From positions 68,667-132,666 of the forward strand of contig CADEDY010000004.1 of the NCBI GenBank assembly GCA_902826215.1: a stretch of 64,000 bases of DNA, in the 5' to 3' direction. Shown piece after piece: positions 10,332 through 28,881 of this stretch (its first letter is position 1; each line of letters starts with the position of its first letter). This DNA comes from an uncultured Bacteroidota bacterium (GTDB lineage: Bacteria > Bacteroidota > Bacteroidia > Flavobacteriales_F > PHOS-HE28). Position numbers and translations under genes: made by a program. Below the pieces are notes generated by a model that was not told the origin of the DNA, made no database searches, and worked only from the letters and a program-made list of their open reading frames with translations.

Positions 10332-11711
10332 TCAAAGCATCCCGCTCACCTTGTTCCGCTTCACAAAGCTCCCATACCCCTTCTTGATCCGCACTTCGCC
10401 GTTGTGTACCGCCACCTGGCCGCGGAGGATGGTGGTCTTCACCTTGCCGGTGAGTTGCATGCCTTCGTAGCCGCTGTAGTCCACGTTCATGTGGTGCGTT
10501 TTGGCGCTGAGGGTGTGGCGCTCGTTGGGGTCGAGCAGGATGATGTCCGCGTCGCTGCCGATTCCGATGGTGCCTTTGCGCGGGAACATGCCGAAGATCT
10601 TCGCCGGGTTGGTGGCGGTGACTTCCACGAACTTGTTCACGGTGATGCGCTTCTTGTTCACGCCTTCGCTGAAGAGCAGTTCCATGCGGTGCTCGATGGC
10701 GGGGTGACCGTTCGGGATCTTCGAGAAATCGGCCGAGCCCATGGCCTTCTGCGCCATCATGAAGGGGCAATGGTCGGTGGCCACCACTTGCAAGCTGCCT
10801 TGTTCGATGCCGGCCCAGAGCTGCGTTTGATCCTTTTTCTCGCGTAGCGGCGGGCTCATCACCCACTTGGCGCCGTCGGCCCGTTCGTAGAGCGAGGCAT
10901 CGAGCAGCAGGTATTGGATGCAGGTCTCGGCGAGCACGCGCTGGCCCCGGCGCGCAGCATCGCGCACGGCGTTGAGCGCGCCTTCGCAGGTGAGGTGTAC
11001 GATGTACGCGGGCACGCCAGTGTAGCTGGCCATGTCGCAGAAGCGGTGACTGGCCTCGGCTTCGGTGATCTCCGGCTGGCTGAGGTAGTGGTACAGCGGC
11101 GAGAGCTTGCCTTCGCTGCGATGCTTCTGCACGAGGTAGTCGATCATGTCGCCGTTGGTGGCGTGTACGATCACCATGCCGCCGTGCTCCTTCACCTCCT
11201 GCATCAGGCCCACCATCTGGCGGTCGTCGATCATGAGCGCGCCCTTGTACGCCATGAAGGTCTTGAAGCTGGTGATGCCTTCCTGCTCGATCATCGTGCG
11301 CACTTCCTTCTTCGTGTCGTCGTTGAAATCGGTGACGGCCATGTGGAAGCTGAGGTCGCCGTAGAGGTTGCCGTTCATGCGGCCCTGCCAGCTTTCCAGC
11401 GCGTGGCGCAGGCTCTTGCCTTGTGTTTGCAGGATGAAGTCGATCACCGTCGTGGTGCCGCCATGCAGCGCGGCCAGCGTGCCGGTCTCGTAGTTGTCGC
11501 TGCTGAAGGTGCCCATGAAGGGCATGTCCAAATGCACGTGCGGATCGATGCCTCCAGGGAGCACGAACTGGCCTTTCGCGTCGATCACTTCGGCGTCGGG
11601 TGCATGCAGATCATGCCCGATGGCCTTGACGTGTTCGCCTTCGATGAGGACGTCGGCGCGGTGGAAGTCGGCGGCGGTGACGACGGTTCCGTTCTTGATG
11701 AGGAGGCTCAT
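10332..11711 (-). CDS. Dihydropyrimidinase / D-hydantoinase (cyclic amidohydrolase)
   Basis: MSLLIKNGTVVTA...VLPGGIDPHVHLDMPFMGT...: metal-binding HxH and the amidohydrolase-superfamily pattern. 459 aa. Confidence 0.9.
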   Translation of the reverse strand: MSLLIKNGTVVTAADFHRADVLIEGEHVKAIGHDLHAPDAEVIDAKGQFVLPGGIDPHVHLDMPFMGTFSSDNYETGTLAALHGGTTTVIDFILQTQGKSLRHALESWQGRMNGNLYGDLSFHMAVTDFNDDTKKEVRTMIEQEGITSFKTFMAYKGALMIDDRQMVGLMQEVKEHGGMVIVHATNGDMIDYLVQKHRSEGKLSPLYHYLSQPEITEAEASHRFCDMASYTGVPAYIVHLTCEGALNAVRDAARRGQRVLAETCIQYLLLDASLYERADGAKWVMSPPLREKKDQTQLWAGIEQGSLQVVATDHCPFMMAQKAMGSADFSKIPNGHPAIEHRMELLFSEGVNKKRITVNKFVEVTATNPAKIFGMFPRKGTIGIGSDADIILLDPNERHTLSAKTHHMNVDYSGYEGMQLTGKVKTTILRGQVAVHNGEVRIKKGYGSFVKRNKVSGML

Positions 11712-11770
11712 GGATCAGAAAATCAGATGATCAGACGATCAGTTGATCGAATGCGGTTCCAAGATAATGA

Positions 11771-11897
11771 GGGCGTGCCCCTCGCAAAGCCTCGGGTCGG
11801 GCTATCCGCTGTACTCCTCGCAGGGGCGATGCATGCTCTTCCTTCGGGCGAAGCATGCTTCGCCCCTACTGCGGGGTGCCGCTCCTATCCCTCACGC
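11771..11897. repeat. ~95-bp repeat family, copy 2, carrying an internal 16-bp perfect palindrome GCGAAGCATGCTTCGC
   Basis: gggcgtgcccctcgcaaagcctcgggtcgggctatccgctgtactcctcgc...ctgcggggtgccgctcctatccctcacgc. The 3' end of the element supplies the last codons and the TAG stop of the NCS1 permease. Confidence 0.7.
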
Positions 11898-13552
11898 AGC
11901 ACACGTTTACCCTTCAACGCCCAATACACGGCGAACGCCACACCCGTTCCGCTGAACCACGAGAGCGTGTAGAGGACCTCCAGCGGCTTCACCCAATATC
12001 CGATGATGGCAACGAACACACCAGCCACCAAAGCCACGATGGCTGCTCTGTTCACACCCGCGTGCGGTCCATCCTCCATGTACAGGTCAGCGATCACCAA
12101 CGTGCGCTTGCGGATGATAAAGTAGTCGCAGAGCAGGATGCCGAGCACGGGGCCGAGCAGTCCGCTGATGAAGATGAGGATCCCGCTGATCTCGTTCATC
12201 AACCACCACGGGCAGATGATGATGCCAACGAGTCCCGCCATAACACCACCAACACGGAAGCTGATCTTCTTCGGGAACAAATTGCTGAACGCATTCGCCG
12301 GTGCGATCACGTTCGCCGCGATGTTGGTGCTGAGCGTAGCGATGAGCATGGCGATCTGCGCGAAGATGACCACACCCGGGCTCTTGAACTTGTCCACCAG
12401 CGAGACCGGATCCCACGGCGCATCCTCGGCGATGAGCACATCATCGAAGGCCACCACGGCCGCGCTGGTGACGAAGATGCCCACGAACGAATAGAAGAGC
12501 ATGGTTCCCGGTAGCCCGATGAACTGTCCGGCTAACTGGTCCTTCTGGCTCTTCGCATGGCGTGTGATGTCGGAAATACTGATGGACATGGTGGCCCAGA
12601 AACCGACCATGGCGGTGAACCACATCAGGTATTGCCAATAGCCGACCTCGCTTGCACCGGCACTGTCGGCCTTGAACTCCAGCTTGGCCGACTCATGACC
12701 TTCCGCATCCTTGAACTGGATTTGCACCTGCGCATCCATGCCGATGTTGATTGCGGTCATCGGCGCGGTGATCGGCATCCATTCGCCCGGCCTGGTTTCG
12801 TTTTGCCTTGGATAGCTCAACCGATAGTGTGTGGCCTTCGGCGTGCCATCGGTGTTCAAGAGCGGTGACAATTGTAACGTGCGGCCGGGCGCATCGGCGT
12901 AAGGCAACTGCGTGATCGTGCTTTGCTGTAATTGCTTCCCTTGCTCCAATGCATTGGCAAAACCACCCGCACTATTCGCGCCCCACACGATCAGCACGAT
13001 GCCGATCAGGATCAATATCGGCGCACTCCAGTCCTCGAGCCAACGGATGCTCTCGGTGCCTTTCCAGATGAACCAGATGTTGATGAGCCAGAACACGCCG
13101 AAGCAGATGAACTTGCCGATGCTCAGCGCCACATCACCTTCCTGACCTGTTGCCGCGTTCCAGATGGAGTAGATCGCCAGCCCACCGATCCACGTCTGCA
13201 CACCGAACCAGCCGCAGGCGACGATGGCGCGGAGCAGACTCGCGATATGGATGCCTTGCGTCCCGAAAGCCGCTCGCCCTTGCACGGGGAACGGGATACC
13301 GTACTTCACGCCCGCATGACCGTTCAATACCATCGGTATGGTGATCACCAAGTTCGCCAGGCCGATGATCACCAAGGCCGCCCGCCAGCTGAGGCCCGCA
13401 CGCATCATGTACGAAGCGAGCAGGTAGGTGGGGATGCACACCGCCATGCCCACCCACAGCGCGGCGAGGTTCCACTTGGTCCAGGTGCGCTGCTCGGGCG
13501 GGATGGGCGCGAGGTCCGGGCTGTAGAGCGGGGAACGGGTGATATCTTCCAT
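11885..13552 (-). CDS. NCS1-family nucleobase:cation symporter (cytosine/uracil/hydantoin permease-like) with a ~95-aa hydrophilic insertion
   Basis: 12 predicted TM segments with the NCS1 pattern (…WNLAALWVGMAVCIPTYLLAS…, …GIPFPVQGRAAFG…). Start assigned to MEDITRSP at 13552. An alternative ATG 15 codons upstream at 13597 is not excluded. Confidence 0.8.
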   Translation of the reverse strand: MEDITRSPLYSPDLAPIPPEQRTWTKWNLAALWVGMAVCIPTYLLASYMMRAGLSWRAALVIIGLANLVITIPMVLNGHAGVKYGIPFPVQGRAAFGTQGIHIASLLRAIVACGWFGVQTWIGGLAIYSIWNAATGQEGDVALSIGKFICFGVFWLINIWFIWKGTESIRWLEDWSAPILILIGIVLIVWGANSAGGFANALEQGKQLQQSTITQLPYADAPGRTLQLSPLLNTDGTPKATHYRLSYPRQNETRPGEWMPITAPMTAINIGMDAQVQIQFKDAEGHESAKLEFKADSAGASEVGYWQYLMWFTAMVGFWATMSISISDITRHAKSQKDQLAGQFIGLPGTMLFYSFVGIFVTSAAVVAFDDVLIAEDAPWDPVSLVDKFKSPGVVIFAQIAMLIATLSTNIAANVIAPANAFSNLFPKKISFRVGGVMAGLVGIIICPWWLMNEISGILIFISGLLGPVLGILLCDYFIIRKRTLVIADLYMEDGPHAGVNRAAIVALVAGVFVAIIGYWVKPLEVLYTLSWFSGTGVAFAVYWALKGKRVLREG

Positions 13553-13621
13553 GCGACTTGTTCGGTACAGCAATGTAATCGGAATCGAACGTTCCATTCG
13601 GAAGCGTGTACTTCGTACTGC

Positions 13622-14338
13622 ATGGGCCGCCTCACCACCCTACTCCTTATTTGTACACTCCTGTGCGTTTCGACCGTTCGCGCACAAAAGACAGTCTACT
13701 TCCCCGTGCGTGGTGTGACCTGGCCGGTATGCGAAAGCGTACCCGATGCCTTTGTCCATCGCGTACGCCACGTCCTCGCCGATAGCGCGAAGATGTTCCC
13801 CGAATATCCGGACCCGGTGCCCTTCACCTGCGACCTCCTCAAAGGCCTTCAAGAAGCGATGACCGATGATTCCGTACGCTACCACTTCGAGCGTCTGTCG
13901 CAGCGCTATTGGTCGGTCGGTCCCCACTATAACAACGTAGAGCGCTACATCGATCGACACATTGACTTTCACTTGGCCATCGCATGCACAGGGCACTTCT
14001 TCTGCGACGTGCGCATCATGGGCCTGAAGAAGCTCTACGACTACCGACGCATGCGGCCGATGGTTTGCGCGACGCAAGAGCACTACGTCCAATTGGAAAA
14101 GCAGGATCGGCAAGCCGTGCGCTACCTGATCCATGTGCTGGAGAACACGCCGTGGAGCATCAGTGGCAGCGAGAACGCGACCATCCACGAGGTCTACATC
14201 CGGGAGATCGCCAAGACGCTCGATCTGTTCACCGGACAAGAACACGTCGACCCCAAGGATCTGCGGCAGTACCTGCCGCTCACCGATGAGAAGTTGCGCG
14301 TAGCGCTGATCGATTGGCGGAAATGGCTCGACCCATGA
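13622..14338 (+). CDS. Secreted hypothetical protein (signal peptide MGRLTTLLLICTLLCVSTVRAQ)
   Basis: The longer track ORF 12932-14338 overlaps the permease on the opposite strand. The first ATG followed by a signal peptide is at 13622. Confidence 0.5.
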   Translation: MGRLTTLLLICTLLCVSTVRAQKTVYFPVRGVTWPVCESVPDAFVHRVRHVLADSAKMFPEYPDPVPFTCDLLKGLQEAMTDDSVRYHFERLSQRYWSVGPHYNNVERYIDRHIDFHLAIACTGHFFCDVRIMGLKKLYDYRRMRPMVCATQEHYVQLEKQDRQAVRYLIHVLENTPWSISGSENATIHEVYIREIAKTLDLFTGQEHVDPKDLRQYLPLTDEKLRVALIDWRKWLDP

Positions 14339-21755: not shown

Positions 21756-21932
21756 TTACGTCTTCTTGATCTTTTCCTTCTCATACGCTTCCAGGAAGGA
21801 TTCGGCCTCGGCTCTTTTGAGATCACTGGCCTTTCGGTCGATCGTACTCAGCCTGTGCGATTCCGCCAGAAGTCCGCGATAATGATCCATGGCCTTTTGC
21901 TCTGGATCTTTCTTCTTGAAGAAATTGAACAT
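21756..21932 (-). CDS. Possible 58-aa small protein (MFNFFKKKDPEQKAMDHYRG...EKEKIKKT) in a lower-GC spacer
   Basis: ATG-to-TAA open frame not present in the >=60-aa ORF track. The region between 21500 and 22200 is otherwise non-coding. Confidence 0.25.
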   Translation of the reverse strand: MFNFFKKKDPEQKAMDHYRGLLAESHRLSTIDRKASDLKRAEAESFLEAYEKEKIKKT

Positions 21933-22208: not shown

Positions 22209-22553
22209 TCAGAACATCGTCTCCCCTTTCAAGAAGAGCACGAAGATGAAGGTCATCAAAAAGTGATGGAACAACAGCAGTGCAGTGACAAGGGTCAGCA
22301 CCGTTTTCCCACTGGGCGTAAGCTCTGGGAAGAGTTTCTTATTGTTCACCGCGATGATCGGCAATGGGATCGTGGCCAGTAGAAAAGTGATCGCCAAAGC
22401 CTTGAACATGACCACATTGCTCATAAGTCCGAAGAACAAATGAGCGTAGTAGAAAACAAAGCCCACGAAGGACAATAGTCCCAGGCGGACGAAGAGCCGC
22501 GCTTCTGCTACCATTTTACCTCTGCTATCCATGACAAAAGACGCACGGTTCAA
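22209..22553 (-). CDS. Hypothetical integral membrane protein (3-4 TM)
   Basis: Hydrophobic ORF. Last gene of the 27238->22209 minus-strand cluster. Confidence 0.45.
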   Translation of the reverse strand: MNRASFVMDSRGKMVAEARLFVRLGLLSFVGFVFYYAHLFFGLMSNVVMFKALAITFLLATIPLPIIAVNNKKLFPELTPSGKTVLTLVTALLLFHHFLMTFIFVLFLKGETMF

Positions 22554-22612
22554 ACGGGGTTGCGTCCTCTGTGGTTACACATTATCCACAAGACCGGGTT
22601 CGGATCGGGATC

Positions 22613-23332
22613 CTATCCCACTGCACGGGCCCTCTGAAAGCAACGCAGCACGGCCAATATTCCGATGATGCATCCACTTACGAACCATTCCCAAGGAAAA
22701 TGCACTGGTATGTATGATCGGCCTCGCTGCAGGGCCATTGCTTGACTTTGCTGCACACCATCCGACAGCAGAAGGTCCTTTCCACTGAAGGAATTCAGGA
22801 GTGGATCCAAGGTGAAAGAAATGAAGATCAGCACAGCGGACAAGCCCAAAAGACTCCATGTCCACACATCTACGAGGCCAACAGGGCGTTTGGATCGTCC
22901 ATAGAGCAAGGTCAGGGCCAACACGATCAGTCCCAAGGACACGATGCACGGTGCCCATACAGGACCTACCCACGGCACTGGGATCAGGAACAAAAGGTCG
23001 CGACTGGAGAGGCTTTCTGGCCAACCCAGCAACACCTTAAGCCATACGTAGTAGAAGATGTCCCAAACGCCGAATCCGAAGCAGAACCAAGCGAACCGAG
23101 CCAATGCGCTCCGCGCCACAAGTGCACCAGGAACCAGCAGCATCAACAACGTGGCTGCCTCTCTTGCCACTTCCGTTGTGACCAGGTTCCGATCCATCGG
23201 CACCAACGGAAAATCGAAACCCGTCGGGTAATACAACGCCCGCAAATAGACCACCACCGCGCTTTCCAAGAATGCCATGGCCGCAAAAAAGATGGTCATC
23301 CAGATCACATGGCGGCGGAATTCACTGGGCAT
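22613..23332 (-). CDS. Hypothetical polytopic membrane protein
   Basis: About 7 hydrophobic segments. Overlaps the upstream EEP gene by 11 nt. Confidence 0.5.
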   Translation of the reverse strand: MPSEFRRHVIWMTIFFAAMAFLESAVVVYLRALYYPTGFDFPLVPMDRNLVTTEVAREAATLLMLLVPGALVARSALARFAWFCFGFGVWDIFYYVWLKVLLGWPESLSSRDLLFLIPVPWVGPVWAPCIVSLGLIVLALTLLYGRSKRPVGLVDVWTWSLLGLSAVLIFISFTLDPLLNSFSGKDLLLSDGVQQSQAMALQRGRSYIPVHFPWEWFVSGCIIGILAVLRCFQRARAVG

Positions 23333-24254
23333 GCTGCGGAAATTGTATCTCGGCGATAAGCCCTCGATGATCGCTTCCTGGAATATCGACCGTTCTCAAC
23401 GATCGAAGTGCTAGCCCATTGGAGACCAACACATGGTCCAGCGGGATGAATGCGAGCGGCCCCAAGGACGGCCAAGTGCGCTGTTGAAATGGCGTGGTCG
23501 AAGACAAGCCTGTTCGATAGCAAAATCGCTGATAGGTCCCATCCCAAGGCACCGTGTTCAGGTCGCCGACGACGATGGTTGCCGTATCACAGTTCATCAA
23601 GTGTCGGGCAAGGATCTCGAACTGCTCATTCCGTTGTTGGAAATGGCCGTAACTGACCGGTGAAGTGGTGTGTACAGTGACCAATCGAACGGTTCCACCC
23701 TCCAATTCGAACAAGGCTTCGATGACCGGAGTGCCTGCCAGATCAAACGTACAGATCTGCTTGAACGGCTGCTTGCTGAAGAAAGCGATCCCATGATAAC
23801 GCGCACCGGGGATCAAGTGGGCAAAAGGATAGGCTCCGCACAGACCGGTCTGCAAGGCATCGGCCCAATCCTCGCTTACTTCTTGCACAGAAACCACATC
23901 AGCACCACTTTCCAATGCCTCCGTGATCGCCTCATCGAATCGACGGTTCGGTTGGAGCACGTTCATGTGGAAGACACGCAGCGAAGGGCCGCGCTCCAAA
24001 TTGCTCATCGGCAGGACCGGGGTGATCATTTGGCCAGCAAGTAGCAATGCCCCGAACAGTGCCGTCCAGAAGGTCCATTGGTACTTCTTCCAAAGCGCAA
24101 GTCCTGAAATGAGCAACATGGTCAATGAAATGGGAAGCATGAATGCACGCGCCAGCATGGGCAGGTATGCATCAGGGGCGAAGGCCAGGGCGACAGAAAC
24201 GACCAACAGCACAGCGGTGTATCGAAAGTCGCGGTAGGGAATGGAGAGTATCAT
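23322..24254 (-). CDS. Membrane-anchored endonuclease/exonuclease/phosphatase (EEP)-family protein
   Basis: Three N-terminal TM helices, then EEP motifs (…RVFHMNVL…, …DVVSVQEV…, …GDLNTVPW…, …SDHRGLIAEI…). Start at the ATG at 24254 (MILSIPY...). Confidence 0.7.
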   Translation of the reverse strand: MILSIPYRDFRYTAVLLVVSVALAFAPDAYLPMLARAFMLPISLTMLLISGLALWKKYQWTFWTALFGALLLAGQMITPVLPMSNLERGPSLRVFHMNVLQPNRRFDEAITEALESGADVVSVQEVSEDWADALQTGLCGAYPFAHLIPGARYHGIAFFSKQPFKQICTFDLAGTPVIEALFELEGGTVRLVTVHTTSPVSYGHFQQRNEQFEILARHLMNCDTATIVVGDLNTVPWDGTYQRFCYRTGLSSTTPFQQRTWPSLGPLAFIPLDHVLVSNGLALRSLRTVDIPGSDHRGLIAEIQFPQHAQ

Positions 24255-24733
24255 GACCTGATCGTTGGAGTTGAAATAAGGCGATCGATACGGCGAAGCA
24301 CCATCCAAAGTGGAATGGCGCCGAGCACACCGAAAGAGGCATCCACGCAACGCCAGAAGAACGGGATACCGCGAACCGGAGCCCACAGGAAGGCCAAGGG
24401 TAGAACCAACAAGCAACACCAAAGTCCCCATTGGATCACCCAGCGGTTCTGCACCGGGTCACGGTAAGGCCCAACAAACGCCAAAGCGATCACCACATGC
24501 GCGAAAGCCAACCAATCTGTTCCATAGAACAGGAAGGGATACGTGGAACCAACATGGGCGACAGCCTCTGCCGCATGCGCGGACCAACCCGCCCAAGGAT
24601 CACCCCAAGAAACGGTGATCCCGGCCAACCATTCGGTGCCCCATTCCAGCGGTACAGCGGTCAGACCACTGATCACGAGGGCGACCATGAAGAACATGAT
24701 CCATCGCCGAATGAACCGAAGGTCCATACTCAT
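24251..24733 (-). CDS. Hypothetical membrane protein (4 TM)
   Basis: ATGA overlaps with both neighbouring genes. Start at MSMDLRF. Confidence 0.5.
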   Translation of the reverse strand: MSMDLRFIRRWIMFFMVALVISGLTAVPLEWGTEWLAGITVSWGDPWAGWSAHAAEAVAHVGSTYPFLFYGTDWLAFAHVVIALAFVGPYRDPVQNRWVIQWGLWCCLLVLPLAFLWAPVRGIPFFWRCVDASFGVLGAIPLWMVLRRIDRLISTPTIRS

Positions 24734-26292
24734 TGTGCTTCGGATAGTTCGTGAAGTGCGTTCGCCGTTCGCTGGTCGGCGAGGTTCCATTCTTGCCAAT
24801 GCTGTTCAGCGTAGCGCTGTTCGAACCGATCACGCTTCGCATCGAGTTCCATTCGAAAGGTCTGCGGATCGAGATGATCGACCCAGCGCACCGTTTTGGA
24901 TCTGTGTTGGGCCATTTGCGCTTCCACCTTGTCGATATCAGCATACAAAAGCGGCAGCACCTTGTCCGACATGGCCAGATAATTGTCCACGTCGATCTCG
25001 CCTTGGTTCCAGTGGTTCAAGTTGAACCGAACGATCACGCTGTCCCAATCAACAGTGGTCGAGGCGACCAGAATGGCGAATGCGGCCCAGCCATTGATGC
25101 GCGCGAGGTAGAATAGGCTCTTCTTGTCGCGCACTTTGAAATAGAGCGTCACCAAGCCCAACAAGACCAGACCCAAGAACACGATCACACCGATGCGCTT
25201 GTACGCCAATCCATGGAATGCGATGTAATGGTAGTTGCGCAAGAACACCGAGATCCCGAGCACCAGATTCTGACCGACCCACAGCAGAGCCAATGTTCTC
25301 AAGCCTTTGGATCGAGCATAGAAATTCAGGTTGTTGCGAAAGAGAACCATCAGGATCACCATGCTCAACAGAATGCTGATGATCAACATCCAGGTCCCTT
25401 CATGGACGAATTGCTTCAAACTGAAATCGACCGGGACCTCGAAGCCGAACCATATCCATTGAATGTCGATCACGTTCACGACGATCAATAAAAGGTTGAC
25501 CATCAATAGGAGGATGACACCCATTCGTCGTTCACGTTCGAGCCCGTCCATGTTCCGTGGTGATGCCCGATCAGGCAACCGTCGACGCGTTCGGACCAAT
25601 ACGTCCCTCCATTGCTCTTCCATGTCGACCACCGCTCGAGGCGCGAAGCGGTAGATCAAGCCTGCACAGACCAGAAGACCGAACGACAGAAAGAGCGTAT
25701 GCGCAGTAGGGATCCAGGAAAGTGCATCGCCGAGGAACTGCAATAGGCCATCCATGAATCCTGCTGTCAAATGATCGAACTTGGGGTTGCCCGCGCGGTA
25801 GAGTTGGGTGAAGAGAGAAAGCAGCAATAAGGGCATCGCACCCAACTTCACCCAGCGCCAACCTGTCCGTGGCACTCCATGGACCTTAGGCAACTGATCA
25901 AGGCTGCCTATGGCGATGAAAGGGGCAACCAGGAAGTTGGTGAAGGCGTGGAGCAAGGAATAGAACAAGGATCGCAAGCGTGCTTCCTGAGCGGTAGCCG
26001 AAGTCACCAGAAGAGCGACCATGGCTACCACAATGGCAAGAACACTATGGTGGACGTAAACCATGATCCCAGCCAACAACGAACCGCCCATGGTCATTCG
26101 GGCCGTGTCTGAAAGCCCGGTCCAACCTGCATTTCCCACAAGAACAAGCAATACAAGGATGATGAATACGAGGAGATCAAGGCCGAGCTCACGCTCCCAG
26201 AACAATTGGTCGAACGCCAATGTCAGGCACACCAACAACAGCGGTTGCCGCCACGCACGCAAAAAGGAGTCATTTACAGTTAACATATGCAC
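24730..26292 (-). CDS. DUF4173-like large polytopic membrane protein
   Basis: 520 aa and 12+ TM. The N-terminus (MHMLTVNDSFLRAWRQPLLLVCLTLAFDQLFWERELG) is typical of the DUF4173 family widespread in Bacteroidota. ATGA overlap with the downstream gene. Confidence 0.6.
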   Translation of the reverse strand: MHMLTVNDSFLRAWRQPLLLVCLTLAFDQLFWERELGLDLLVFIILVLLVLVGNAGWTGLSDTARMTMGGSLLAGIMVYVHHSVLAIVVAMVALLVTSATAQEARLRSLFYSLLHAFTNFLVAPFIAIGSLDQLPKVHGVPRTGWRWVKLGAMPLLLLSLFTQLYRAGNPKFDHLTAGFMDGLLQFLGDALSWIPTAHTLFLSFGLLVCAGLIYRFAPRAVVDMEEQWRDVLVRTRRRLPDRASPRNMDGLERERRMGVILLLMVNLLLIVVNVIDIQWIWFGFEVPVDFSLKQFVHEGTWMLIISILLSMVILMVLFRNNLNFYARSKGLRTLALLWVGQNLVLGISVFLRNYHYIAFHGLAYKRIGVIVFLGLVLLGLVTLYFKVRDKKSLFYLARINGWAAFAILVASTTVDWDSVIVRFNLNHWNQGEIDVDNYLAMSDKVLPLLYADIDKVEAQMAQHRSKTVRWVDHLDPQTFRMELDAKRDRFEQRYAEQHWQEWNLADQRTANALHELSEAQ

Positions 26293-26294
26293 GG

Positions 26295-26582
26295 TCAGGG
26301 TTTGGGGATCAAGCGTTCAATGGCATCCAAATGGGCACGAAAGGCTTTGGTTCCGGGAATGGTGGACCGGTAACTCGTGTTGGGTCGTTTACCGATGAAT
26401 CGCTTTCGGACCTGCACGTACTTCAACTCTTCCAATGCAGCTAAATGACTTGCCAGATTGCCATCGGTAACGCCCAAAAGCTCCTTGAATTGCGCGTGAT
26501 CCACCCACTCGTTCACCACGAGCACCGCCATGATGCCCAAACGCACACGACTCTCGAACGCTTTGTTCAGATCCTCGATCAT
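26295..26582 (-). CDS. Small winged-helix (PF13601-like) transcriptional regulator
   Basis: RLGIMAVLV...FKELLGVTDGNLASHLAALEELKYVQVRKRFIGKRPNTSYRSTIPGTKAF: the common Bacteroidota ~95-aa wHTH regulator. Its stop abuts the next gene's start. Confidence 0.7.
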   Translation of the reverse strand: MIEDLNKAFESRVRLGIMAVLVVNEWVDHAQFKELLGVTDGNLASHLAALEELKYVQVRKRFIGKRPNTSYRSTIPGTKAFRAHLDAIERLIPKP

Positions 26583-27238
26583 TCTGCAGATGAAGTGGCT
26601 TCCCGCTCGTAGCGCAGATACATGAGCGCCCCATAAATGATATGCAGCACGCCGAACCCAAGTGCCCAGAACAACAAGCCTGCTTCCAACCAGAAGATCG
26701 CAACAAGCCCAAGAGCGAGTTCACTGAAGCCCAACCAGCGTATCTCGTCTAGCGTGAACTTGCTGGCGTTGAACAAGGCCAAGCCATAGAAGATCAGGGT
26801 TGCTGGAGGCACAAGACCGGGGAGACCGTAGAAGAACAGTGCCAAGCAGAAAATGCCCCCAACGGCCAATGGTATGAGCATGTTCCACATCAACCGACGT
26901 GCGCTGGCATCCCAGAGGTATTGGCCTGCCTTGGTGCTACGACGCCAAGTGAACCAGCCTGCACCGAGCAGCGCCACGAGGAGCACCAATGCCGCATCGG
27001 TGATCAACGTGATGAGCAACGCATCCTCCGCGGTGAACGACCCACCGGTCCCGTACGTGAGCACATCGCGCGCTGGCCCGAGCGCTGCGTTGATATGGTA
27101 GCGCGCCAACACGGCTCCTGACAAAGCCACGCAGCCAGCGAACACGCCGCTAAGTCCACTTAGGCTCAAGAAACGGGTGCTGCGATCCATCAGCCCACGG
27201 ATGTGGGCGAGTTCCTTCAAGTGGTCGTTCTGATCCAT
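26579..27238 (-). CDS. Hypothetical membrane protein (first gene of the operon)
   Basis: 6 TM. Start at MDQNDHLKELAHIRGLM (27238). Confidence 0.5.
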   Translation of the reverse strand: MDQNDHLKELAHIRGLMDRSTRFLSLSGLSGVFAGCVALSGAVLARYHINAALGPARDVLTYGTGGSFTAEDALLITLITDAALVLLVALLGAGWFTWRRSTKAGQYLWDASARRLMWNMLIPLAVGGIFCLALFFYGLPGLVPPATLIFYGLALFNASKFTLDEIRWLGFSELALGLVAIFWLEAGLLFWALGFGVLHIIYGALMYLRYEREATSSAE

Positions 27239-27268
27239 TACAAAGTACTTTGCAGTACAAAGTAACGA
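27238..27268. promoter_or_regulatory. Candidate operator: ttACAAAGTACTTTGcagTACAAAGTAac (12-bp perfect palindrome CAAAGTACTTTG inside a TACAAAGTA direct repeat)
   Basis: Located in the 78-bp gap immediately upstream of the operon that encodes the wHTH regulator. Confidence 0.4.
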
Positions 27269-27316
27269 GATCAAGAAAGAAACATTGCATGCTGAAGTTA
27301 TTTCCCTTGGAAAGGC

Positions 27317-28015
27317 TCAGTGCATCGACACCATTGCAAGCGCCGCTCCCACCAGCACAGCCACGAACCGGGCGGCATTGAACCGATGCTCAGGGGCACT
27401 TTCAAAGATGATGGTGGTGCTGATGTGTAACAACATCCCAATGGCCAAGCCCAGCATATCATGCAGGAAGGCATGCCCTAGACCCTCTCCTACCAGCAAA
27501 CCTGTACCGATCCCCAAAGGCGCAGCAGAAGCGAACACCAGGATCATGATCCAACTGGAAGCGGTTCCAGTTCCTGATCGGAGCAGGACAGTAGCCAGTG
27601 CTATGGCCATGGGCATCTTGTGCAACAACACCCCGATGAGGAACGGGAGATCACCTGCGACCTTCGGATCGGCAAAAGGGATCCCTTCGGCGTAGGAATG
27701 CAGGCACAAGCTCACCAAGGTCACCAAGGGAAGAGCCTTTCCAGGTGTGGTATGTACGTGGCCATGCTCAATGCCATGGCTGAAGAACTCAAGCACTACT
27801 TGAAGGAGAAAGCCTCCAAGAACCCAGAAACCGATACGCATGCCTTCCTCGGCATACAGTTCCGGCAACATGTGCAGGAACACCACACCGAGCAGGAAAG
27901 CACCACTGAAGGAGAGCAGGATGCGCAACCAACGCGCTTCAGGGCGTAACACACGCACCAAAGCAGCAGCGATCAAAGGCAAGAGAAAGAAGGCAAGAAC
28001 GGTGATCCTGGTCAT
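27317..28015 (-). CDS. ZIP-family divalent-metal transporter (ZupT-like)
   Basis: 8 TM. Histidine-rich loop HGIEHGHVHTT. Conserved HSYAEG and HKMPMA motifs. Confidence 0.8.
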   Translation of the reverse strand: MTRITVLAFFLLPLIAAALVRVLRPEARWLRILLSFSGAFLLGVVFLHMLPELYAEEGMRIGFWVLGGFLLQVVLEFFSHGIEHGHVHTTPGKALPLVTLVSLCLHSYAEGIPFADPKVAGDLPFLIGVLLHKMPMAIALATVLLRSGTGTASSWIMILVFASAAPLGIGTGLLVGEGLGHAFLHDMLGLAIGMLLHISTTIIFESAPEHRFNAARFVAVLVGAALAMVSMH

Positions 28016-28740
28016 TGCACGGGTTTACGCATCCAAAGGACGAATCGGTCCGATCGCTCGGGATCGAACGGGGTCAGCACAGGTCCGTTCGTGCGATCCT
28101 CGATAAGGAAGCCTGCTTCCAGAGCCATGGACTCCAGTTCCAAAGGTGTCAACGTCTGAACGCGTTCCTCGAATTCGTGCACCTCGGCGCCATCCTTCAC
28201 ATGAATGCGTTTAACAAGGATCCCGTCTTCACAGGCTCGGTCGATGCGGAACCCAATTCCAGAACGTTCCAATGTCTCTGCTGCGACCAAGTCCCGGACA
28301 ACAAGGTCAGAATTCATGAAATCCAGCACAAAGCGCCCACCGGGACGCAGTGCATCGAATACGGCACGGAACACGGCCCGGTCATCATCCAAGGTTTCGA
28401 AGTACCCCAGGCTGGTGAACAAGCAGCATCCGAGATCAAAATCCTCATGAGCAAAAGGCTCGCGCATATCATGCACATGGAAGGTGGCGTCCGGAACAGA
28501 CACACGTGCCTCGCTGATACTGGTCTCAGAGATGTCCACCCCGGTGACTTTCAAGCCCTGTTCCGTGAAATAGCGGGCATGACGTCCCCTACCGCAGGCC
28601 AGATCCAGGATACGATCACCGGAGGAGGGGCTCCATTGGCTCATGATGGCGTCCACCCACAGCTCCGCATCTCCTTCGTCCCGATGGCCATACAGCAGGG
28701 CGTAGTACCGTGTTCCGAACCAGTGTTTGAACCAACCCAT
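28012..28740 (-). CDS. Class I SAM-dependent methyltransferase
   Basis: Motif I ILDLACGRGRHARYF. Start at MGWFKHWF (28740). The stop overlaps the ZIP start (ATGA). Confidence 0.75.
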   Translation of the reverse strand: MGWFKHWFGTRYYALLYGHRDEGDAELWVDAIMSQWSPSSGDRILDLACGRGRHARYFTEQGLKVTGVDISETSISEARVSVPDATFHVHDMREPFAHEDFDLGCCLFTSLGYFETLDDDRAVFRAVFDALRPGGRFVLDFMNSDLVVRDLVAAETLERSGIGFRIDRACEDGILVKRIHVKDGAEVHEFEERVQTLTPLELESMALEAGFLIEDRTNGPVLTPFDPERSDRFVLWMRKPVQ

Positions 28741-28881
28741 TTGCGACCGACGAACGGACGGCGAATGTACCGGCTGCCGGGCGGGTTGACAATTCCGTGG
28801 AAAACTCCTGCTGGGCCGACCCCTCTGGGCTGAACCGGTACTTGTTCTTTGTAGGACAAGTACCGAACAGGCCCAAGATCC

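Follow-up and report, generated by a model that had tools for sequence, protein, structure and literature searches.

We report a candidate autoregulated operon of membrane-protein genes, g1 to g6, on the minus strand of a 64-kb stretch of DNA from an uncultured Bacteroidota bacterium of the Flavobacteriales (contig CADEDY010000004.1; the whole stretch is referred to here as the window). With modest confidence, we consider the data as a whole best explained if the six genes form one operon, if the small winged helix-turn-helix (wHTH) protein encoded by g2 represses that operon at an operator directly upstream of g1, and if the membrane protein g1 relays a signal to g2. Under this model, g1 to g6 would be transcribed from a single promoter of the Bacteroidetes sigma-A type, with the left arm of a composite palindrome of 27 bp serving as its −7 box. 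Binding of g2 to the 27-bp site, as one dimer or as two, would cover the −7 box, the predicted start and the short 5′ untranslated region (UTR) and would switch off the operon, including g2 itself. Perturbation of the membrane or envelope would lead g1 to capture or release g2 at the membrane in the manner of SdpI and SdpR, and the regulated output would be inner-membrane proteins, here a DUF4153 protein, a member of each of two unnamed families and a predicted periplasmic EEP phosphoesterase. The sequences show the gene structure, the coupling, the conservation of the motif and its co-occurrence with g1 and g2; from comparison with related loci we infer that g2 binds the motif, the sign of the regulation, the part played by g1 and what the circuit does physiologically.

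The candidate operator/promoter site, TTACTTTG-TACTG-CAAAGTACTTTG-TA, lies at 27239..27265 on the minus strand, and all 27 bp are exact in the sequence. The site contains three hexameric half-sites, which read ACTTTG forward, CAAAGT reverse and ACTTTG forward again. The left arm, TTACTTTG (27258..27265, minus strand), resembles the Bacteroidetes sigma-A −7 box TAnnTTTG at five of the six specified bases. An inverted repeat with 7-bp arms, TACTTTG-N5-CAAAGTA, occupies 27246..27264 on the same strand and is likely the dimer-binding core, the centers of its half-sites being about one helical turn apart. A sequence-only reading of this DNA had described a 12-bp perfect palindrome within a direct repeat, and both were recovered exactly: the palindrome CAAAGTACTTTG at 27241..27252 (minus strand), 3 nt from the g1 ATG at 27238 and overlapping the predicted transcription start site (TSS) and the early transcribed region, and the repeat TACTTTGTA at 27239-27247 and 27256-27264 (minus strand). 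The palindrome was the sole match in the window when up to one mismatch was allowed (chance expectation, 0.04), the direct repeat likewise occurred nowhere else in the window (chance expectation, 0.06), and the composite pattern TTACTTTG-N5-CAAAGTACTTTG was unique there even with three mismatches.

Orthologues were compared across 80 related genome loci (given L numbers here), and the nearest genome locus to the window, L001, belongs to a metagenome-assembled genome (MAG) from activated sludge with 78-97% protein identity. Wherever an orthologous locus has kept g1, the motif was found at the start of that gene, in the form cgTTACTTTG-N5-CAAAGTACTTTG and mostly 2-4 nt before the ATG; the loci that carry it include the Bacteroidales MAG L080, in which g3 is only 36% identical. 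When 1.35 Mb of locus DNA was scanned for the palindrome, nearly all matches fell at the start of g1, and the exceptions included two motif copies before g3 (L039 and L080) and two one-mismatch matches elsewhere. Three relatives were without g1-g2 (L039, L048 and L060), and two of these, L048 and L060, were also without the motif.

The distant comparison comprised eight loci of the g1 family, from one member of the Fulvivirgaceae, two Saprospiraceae, four other Bacteroidota and the human gut bacterium Coprobacter fastidiosus. All eight had a g1-like gene followed directly by an HTH_34 gene, and all eight had the motif twice, before the g1-like gene and before cargo genes, with the two copies flanking the g1-HTH_34 pair in most of them. 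An exact-pattern scan of metagenomes, the site counts of which are lower bounds, found at least about 27 sites directly before g1-like genes and at least about 23 sites directly after HTH_34 genes and before cargo genes. The second motif copy may act as a second promoter, as a roadblock or in looping. Loci outside the window's clade with the operator present twice were L081-L087, L208 and, among metagenome loci, L124, L131, L132, L135, L141, L143 and L153, and paired copies on single metagenome contigs stood ~950-1010 bp apart. The C. fastidiosus locus (L208, 5962-8330) reads motif, g1-like gene, HTH_34, motif and CreD and is directly preceded by an RND efflux operon.

If an operon is controlled by a regulator that it encodes, a conserved palindromic site is expected at its promoter, and such a site was found. 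The earlier suggestion that the embedded wHTH protein autoregulates through the palindrome finds strong comparative support in the presence of the motif at every retained g1 and before all eight distant g1-like genes and in an invariant DNA-recognition helix in the regulator. Judged by this comparison, the conserved unit is the motif together with a g1-family membrane protein and an HTH_34 protein, and the cargo consists of interchangeable membrane proteins. We conclude that g2 is most likely an autorepressor acting at the upstream motif and that the trio appears to mark a regulon of envelope and membrane proteins across the phylum Bacteroidota.

Presumed regulator g2 and membrane protein g1

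The gene g2 (26295..26582, minus strand) encodes a 95-aa HTH_34 winged-helix protein, the presumed autorepressor. A wHTH regulator of ~95 aa had been called from the letters of the sequence, and the Pfam family HTH_34 (PF13601) bore this out with a match over profile positions 1-80 of 80 (E=1e-24; score 86.7 bits, cut-off 27). Across distant Bacteroidota lineages, neither the helix TDGNLASH nor the wing FxGKxPNT varied, such that an invariant recognition helix and wing are matched by an invariant operator. Otherwise, g2 is a bare wHTH protein, with neither a cysteine nor an extra domain. Among proteins of solved structure, the closest in sequence was PH1061 of Pyrococcus horikoshii (PDB 1UB9; E=1e-5, residues 11-91), but that protein is archaeal and uninformative as to operator or signal. 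Although g2 is like ArsR/SmtB proteins in its winged-helix fold, in its size and in a weak similarity to the NCBIfam subfamily model NF033788, it scored 22 bits against that model (E=1e-4), short of the 55-bit cut-off, and it has no complete α3 or α5 metal site: the α3 cysteine motif is absent, and where an α5 site would have Asp/His/His/Glu, only H84 and E89 are conserved in the last helix. Close relatives of g2 carry the JGI label "predicted ArsR family." When the operon proteins were compared with the defence-system models of PADLOC, no defence system was identified, the only hit being that of g2 to Csa3 (E=1.5e-5), which is generic for wHTH proteins.

The gene g1 (26579..27238, minus strand) encodes a 219-aa inner-membrane protein. 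Homologues are 217-220 aa long and their conservation begins at ATG 27238, which indicates that g1 starts at this codon and that the palindrome lies upstream of the gene. The upper boundary of 27274 in the sequence-only reading, a TTG that would place the palindrome inside g1, is therefore wrong. The g1 family comprises 1299 clusters at 50% identity and has no Pfam model; searched with g1 at E<=10, Pfam gave nothing besides a spurious match to DUF5362 and no match to the SdpI model, and NCBIfam gave no match at all. An AlphaFold2 model (pLDDT 84.7) consists of an N-terminal amphipathic helix and six transmembrane (TM) helices, and the best-conserved segment is an N-terminal juxtamembrane motif, IRxxMxRSxRFxSLSGxSG. 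In L162, L166 and probably L089, non-homologous small TM proteins replace g1 before HTH_34. These substitutes are 123-200 aa long, follow the motif and have an N-terminal helix like that of g1 (..EL..IK..IE.S..); the HTH_34 gene lies downstream of them and is directly adjacent in L162 and L166, and all three loci are metagenome contigs. This pattern suggests that it is the N-terminal helix of g1 that matters for function.

Because g2 has no ligand-binding domain and because g1 is always the gene before it and is coupled to it in translation, signal input is proposed to arrive via g1, which may relay a membrane or envelope signal to g2. Alternatively, g2 could repress at the motif but sense the signal itself or through an unlinked partner, in which case g1 would simply be the first cargo protein. 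We regard this as rather unlikely. It would fit the habit of ArsR-like wHTH proteins of sensing ligands directly, as well as the weak NF033788 similarity, and g1 has no recognisable sensor fold and a contact with g2 that is itself supposed. Against it, g2 is a bare 95-aa wHTH protein with no cysteine and no complete α5-type metal site. Moreover, the adjacency of g1 and HTH_34 held in all eight distant loci while all other cargo varied, the 4-nt overlap between g1 and g2 was retained in 60 of 63 orthologous loci, and the proteins that replace g1 resemble it in the N-terminal helix. We favor g1 as the source of the signal.

Possible promoter function of the candidate operator

A promoter of the Bacteroidetes sigma-A type was defined by a −7 box, TAnnTTTG, with a −33 TTG or TTTG ~19 nt upstream. 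In Flavobacterium psychrophilum, the −7 box occupies −12 to −5, and a promoter variant, TAnnTTGY, has been reported (PMC9723704). The left arm of the orthologous sites, T(T/A)ACTTTG, fits the −7 box, and among distant sites that precede g1-like genes and have TAACTTTG or TTACTTTG as the arm, a TTG was present 17-21 nt upstream at 24 of 32. The TSS of the operon is predicted at ~27252-27253, which would give a 5′ UTR of ~14-15 nt and an operator that spans about −12 to +13, where repressors classically bind. As the left arm would be the −7 box, a protein bound at the site would block the promoter. A leaderless mRNA with the proximal TACTTTG for its −7 box was also considered and was rejected, since a box at −12 to −5 would put the start inside or after the ATG. 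A scan of the operon for sigma-70 promoters and terminators gave nothing above chance, and the motif was not found among the entries listed in the F. psychrophilum TSS tables.

The match to a −7 box raises the alternative that the motif is a strong promoter only, or is read by some other global factor, and that HTH_34 does not bind it. The left arm agrees with the consensus of the −7 box, TACTTTGT fits the TAnnTTGY variant of F. psychrophilum, and one locus, L039, has kept the motif without g1-g2. A promoter, however, needs neither a 7-bp inverted repeat that is invariant across orders nor a third half-site, and two boxes that lie 10 bp apart are too close to serve as −33 and −7 elements. Moreover, distant loci have a copy of the motif on either side of the regulator gene, as expected for the site of a local autoregulator, and the motif was lost together with g1-g2 in L048 and L060. 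We consider a promoter without an HTH_34 site improbable.

The conserved sequence might also act as RNA, for example as a 5′-UTR hairpin, ACUUUG-N5-CAAAGU, that controls translation or termination, and a stem of 6-7 bp followed by CUUU(U) could be drawn 2-26 nt from the start codon. Among the orthologues, the arms were invariant and the N5 spacer was variable, and a T-to-C change in the right arm occurred in more than 10 loci without a compensating change in the left arm. Invariant arms and an uncompensated T-to-C change favor recognition by a protein over an RNA stem, as there is no covariation and the recurrent change breaks a pair. In addition, the left arm comes before the predicted TSS, the stem would be A/U-rich and weak, and Rfam covariance models gave no match at the motif region at E<=1. 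An RNA element is therefore very improbable, and a protein-binding site that overlaps a promoter is the preferred reading.

Several observations weigh against repression by g2 at this site. The −33 region of the window itself, GCAATG, is a poor match to TTG or TTTG, and the motif copies before cargo genes likewise have no −33 TTG, a run of seven T residues being present 6-9 nt upstream instead. A single wHTH dimer does not account for the third half-site, which lies 6 bp from the second. In L039 (9775-10000), a perfect motif has been kept without g1-g2 and is followed by ~200 nt of non-coding DNA before g3; either g1-g2 were deleted recently or another factor, such as a paralogous regulator acting in trans, reads the site. 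Finally, the support for the autorepression model is comparative throughout, and nearly all of the cargo families are uncharacterised, which makes the physiological role a guess.

Probable operon structure, cargo and flanking genes

Seven same-strand open reading frames (ORFs) span 22209-27238 on the minus strand, and ATGA start/stop overlaps join g1 to g2 (26582/26579), g3 to g4 (24733/24730) and g4 to g5 (24254/24251). These are three of the four overlaps in the sequence-only reading; the fourth, placed at 26295/26292, is instead a gap, as the g2/g3 junction reads TGAccGTG, with 2 nt to the GTG and 8 nt to the recorded ATG start of g3. The exact 518-aa g3 product beginning at ATG 26286 is held in a public protein collection that has NCBI among its sources. 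The g5 and g6 genes overlap by 11 nt (ATGCCCAGTGA), and at the other junctions across related loci the spacing was mostly −4, −11 or a few nucleotides. Translational coupling is supported by these overlaps, but they do not demonstrate the stoichiometric co-translation that had been read from them.

The first cargo gene, g3 (24730..26286, minus strand), encodes a 518-aa polytopic membrane protein with a C-terminal helical domain. It had been called a 520-aa DUF4173 protein; Pfam assigns it to DUF4153 (PF13687; 128.7 bits against a cut-off of 27, E=4e-37), and DUF4173 is the label that NCBI gives to its relatives. A structural model (pLDDT 81) was all helical and had no solved structural relative. 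DUF4153 homologues at 37-39% identity stand alone, and in L083, a distant locus of the motif/g1/HTH_34 cassette, DUF4153 is fused to leucine-rich repeats in a 715-aa protein (11663-13810). The g4 gene (24251..24733, minus strand) encodes a membrane protein of 160 aa, from an unnamed family with repeated occurrence as cargo: homologues were present in L080, L083, L084, L085 and L087, and g4 was missing from ~5 loci of the Flavobacteriales clade.

The product of g5 (23322..24254, minus strand) is a 310-aa accessory cargo protein with three N-terminal TM segments and an Exo_endo_phos (EEP) domain (PF03372; 99.3 bits, E=3e-28), in keeping with the EEP fold proposed earlier. The catalytic residues N98, E125, D231, N233, D295 and H296 were invariant in 42 orthologues, and profile comparison with the PDB gave weak and generic matches throughout, to ExoIII-type enzymes (3e-5), sphingomyelinase C (1e-3), nocturnin (2e-3) and TDP2 (1e-2), none of them specific enough to place the domain with the sphingomyelinases, the inositol phosphatases or the nucleases. 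The three N-terminal TM segments and the charge distribution suggest, by the positive-inside rule, that the EEP domain faces the periplasm. The g6 gene (22613..23332, minus strand) encodes a 239-aa polytopic membrane protein of another unnamed family and ends the tightly packed block. Homologues of g6 were found in L083 and L085 and, directly after the motif, in L164; an assignment of g6 to DUF1361 was tried and dismissed as unrelated (hhalign probability, 0.1). Searches of NCBIfam and Pfam (E<=10) with g1, g4, g6 and g7 found no family.

The seventh gene, g7 (22209..22532, minus strand), encodes a 107-aa protein with three TM segments, and a public protein collection holds the exact product. 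It is separated from g6 by ~80 nt in the window and by 40-90 nt in nearly all loci measured, and it is preceded by a different promoter-like element, TTGTGGATAA..GTAACC..GCAACC-N13-GCGTCT (22539..22591, minus strand), that ends 6-7 nt before the g7 ATG and is conserved in nearly all orthologous loci. The element looks like a promoter for an extracytoplasmic function (ECF) sigma factor that would drive a near-leaderless g7 transcript, and Rfam gave no match at the g7 leader at E<=1. Moreover, g7 adjoins g3 where g4-g6 are absent (L039, L060 and L066). Given its own conserved element and its retention in the absence of g4-g6, g7 is probably its own transcription unit, and the seven-gene operon of the sequence-only reading becomes doubtful. 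We conclude that a six-gene operon plus one separate gene is more likely. Just downstream of g7 is a 58-aa Lys/Glu-rich ORF (MFNFFKKKDPEQKAMDHYRGLL...; 21756-21932, minus strand).

Directly upstream of g1, genes for a ZIP-family metal transporter and an S-adenosylmethionine (SAM)-dependent methyltransferase occupy 27317-28773 on the minus strand, with conserved synteny in nearly all related MAGs. As only 78 nt separate the ZIP stop codon from the g1 ATG, read-through from ZIP into the operon is possible. The Flavobacteriales clade retains the order methyltransferase-ZIP-g1...g7, and this order alone is weak evidence because unrelated flanking genes are kept too. The earlier expectation of a conserved gene order held within that clade, but the proposed module of regulator, DUF4173 and EEP protein is not the conserved unit: g5 is absent from ~10 orthologous loci of close relatives and the EEP protein from most distant loci, and DUF4153 also occurs alone in other Bacteroidota. 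That the gene order is merely inherited among close relatives and has no functional meaning, as the syntenic ZIP and methyltransferase genes of the Flavobacteriales MAGs and the solitary distant DUF4153 homologues might suggest, is hardly credible, since the start/stop overlaps are conserved and g1, g2 and the motif recur with cargo families g3, g4, g5 and g6 in other orders and unrelated neighbourhoods.

Known systems and biological meaning

In Bacillus subtilis, the ArsR-type autorepressor SdpR is sequestered by the polytopic membrane protein SdpI. The present system is similar in that a bare wHTH autorepressor of ~90 aa and a six-TM membrane protein of ~200 aa would share one autoregulated operon, and SdpR/SdpI offers a route by which a membrane signal could reach a repressor that has no ligand domain, which makes it the closest mechanistic analogue. 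The two differ in phylum and in gene order, the membrane protein coming first here. Moreover, g1 has no sequence similarity to SdpI (no Pfam match at E<=10), there is no toxin gene, the cargo is made up of membrane proteins that vary from locus to locus, and the interaction of g1 with g2 is a proposal. The repressors BlaI and MecI are likewise small winged-helix proteins that bind palindromes at their own promoters and are co-encoded with the membrane sensors BlaR1 and MecR1. The present system would share the winged-helix repressor, the palindrome over its own promoter and the co-encoded membrane partner. BlaR1, however, has zinc-protease and penicillin-binding sensor domains, whereas g1 consists only of the N-terminal helix and six TM segments, and g2 belongs to HTH_34 rather than to the Penicillinase_R family.

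The cargo found directly behind the motif in other loci consists almost entirely of inner-membrane proteins. CreD was in this position in at least 10 loci (E=7e-151), and the other families comprised DUF4153, DUF1361, DAGK_prokar, a Coq4-like family and the g4 and g6 families, as well as VIT-domain proteins, a B12-radical-SAM enzyme and DsbD_2. In Proteobacteria, CreD is the inner-membrane output of an envelope-stress module governed by the two-component regulator CreBC. CreD may similarly be a regulated output in the many Bacteroidota loci where it lies directly behind the motif, but the regulator here would be g1 with HTH_34, and the window's own operon is without CreD. Inner-membrane cargo, elsewhere including CreD, DUF1361 and a lipid kinase of the DgkA type, suggests membrane or envelope homeostasis, and our guess at the physiological role is homeostasis of this kind, through lipid remodelling or a stress response.

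No functional work came to light in literature searches on DUF4153/DUF4173, HTH_34/PF13601, the sequence of the motif and CreD of Bacteroidota; the only pertinent statement was that neither DUF4153 nor DUF4173 is related to Cache domains. The logic of a small autorepressor with a membrane partner is already familiar; the families, the operator and a regulon that extends across the phylum are undescribed. More tentatively, g1, HTH_34 and an ACTTTG-N5-CAAAGTACTTT operator could together constitute an unrecognised, phylum-wide module for one-step transmembrane signalling, in which the six-TM protein g1 would sense the state of the membrane or envelope, control the repressor through its conserved N-terminal helix and thereby govern a mobile inner-membrane regulon, with CreD, DUF4153, DUF1361, the DgkA-type kinase and the periplasmic EEP phosphoesterase among its members, for envelope or membrane-lipid stress, including in gut Bacteroidales.

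Envelope-stress signalling in Bacteroidota is known mainly through pairs of ECF sigma and anti-sigma factors and through hybrid two-component systems. The present comparison points to a third circuit, recognisable by sequence from an operator of 22-27 bp, a small repressor and a membrane partner, and spanning Flavobacteriales, Bacteroidales, Cytophagales and Saprospiraceae. It would provide the first regulatory context for DUF4153/DUF4173, DUF1361, the g1, g4 and g6 families and the CreD of Bacteroidota. As the operator is nearly invariant, its regulons should be predictable genome by genome, and the presence of the cassette in the gut commensal C. fastidiosus suggests that the circuit may be relevant to how gut Bacteroidales cope with membrane-damaging stress.

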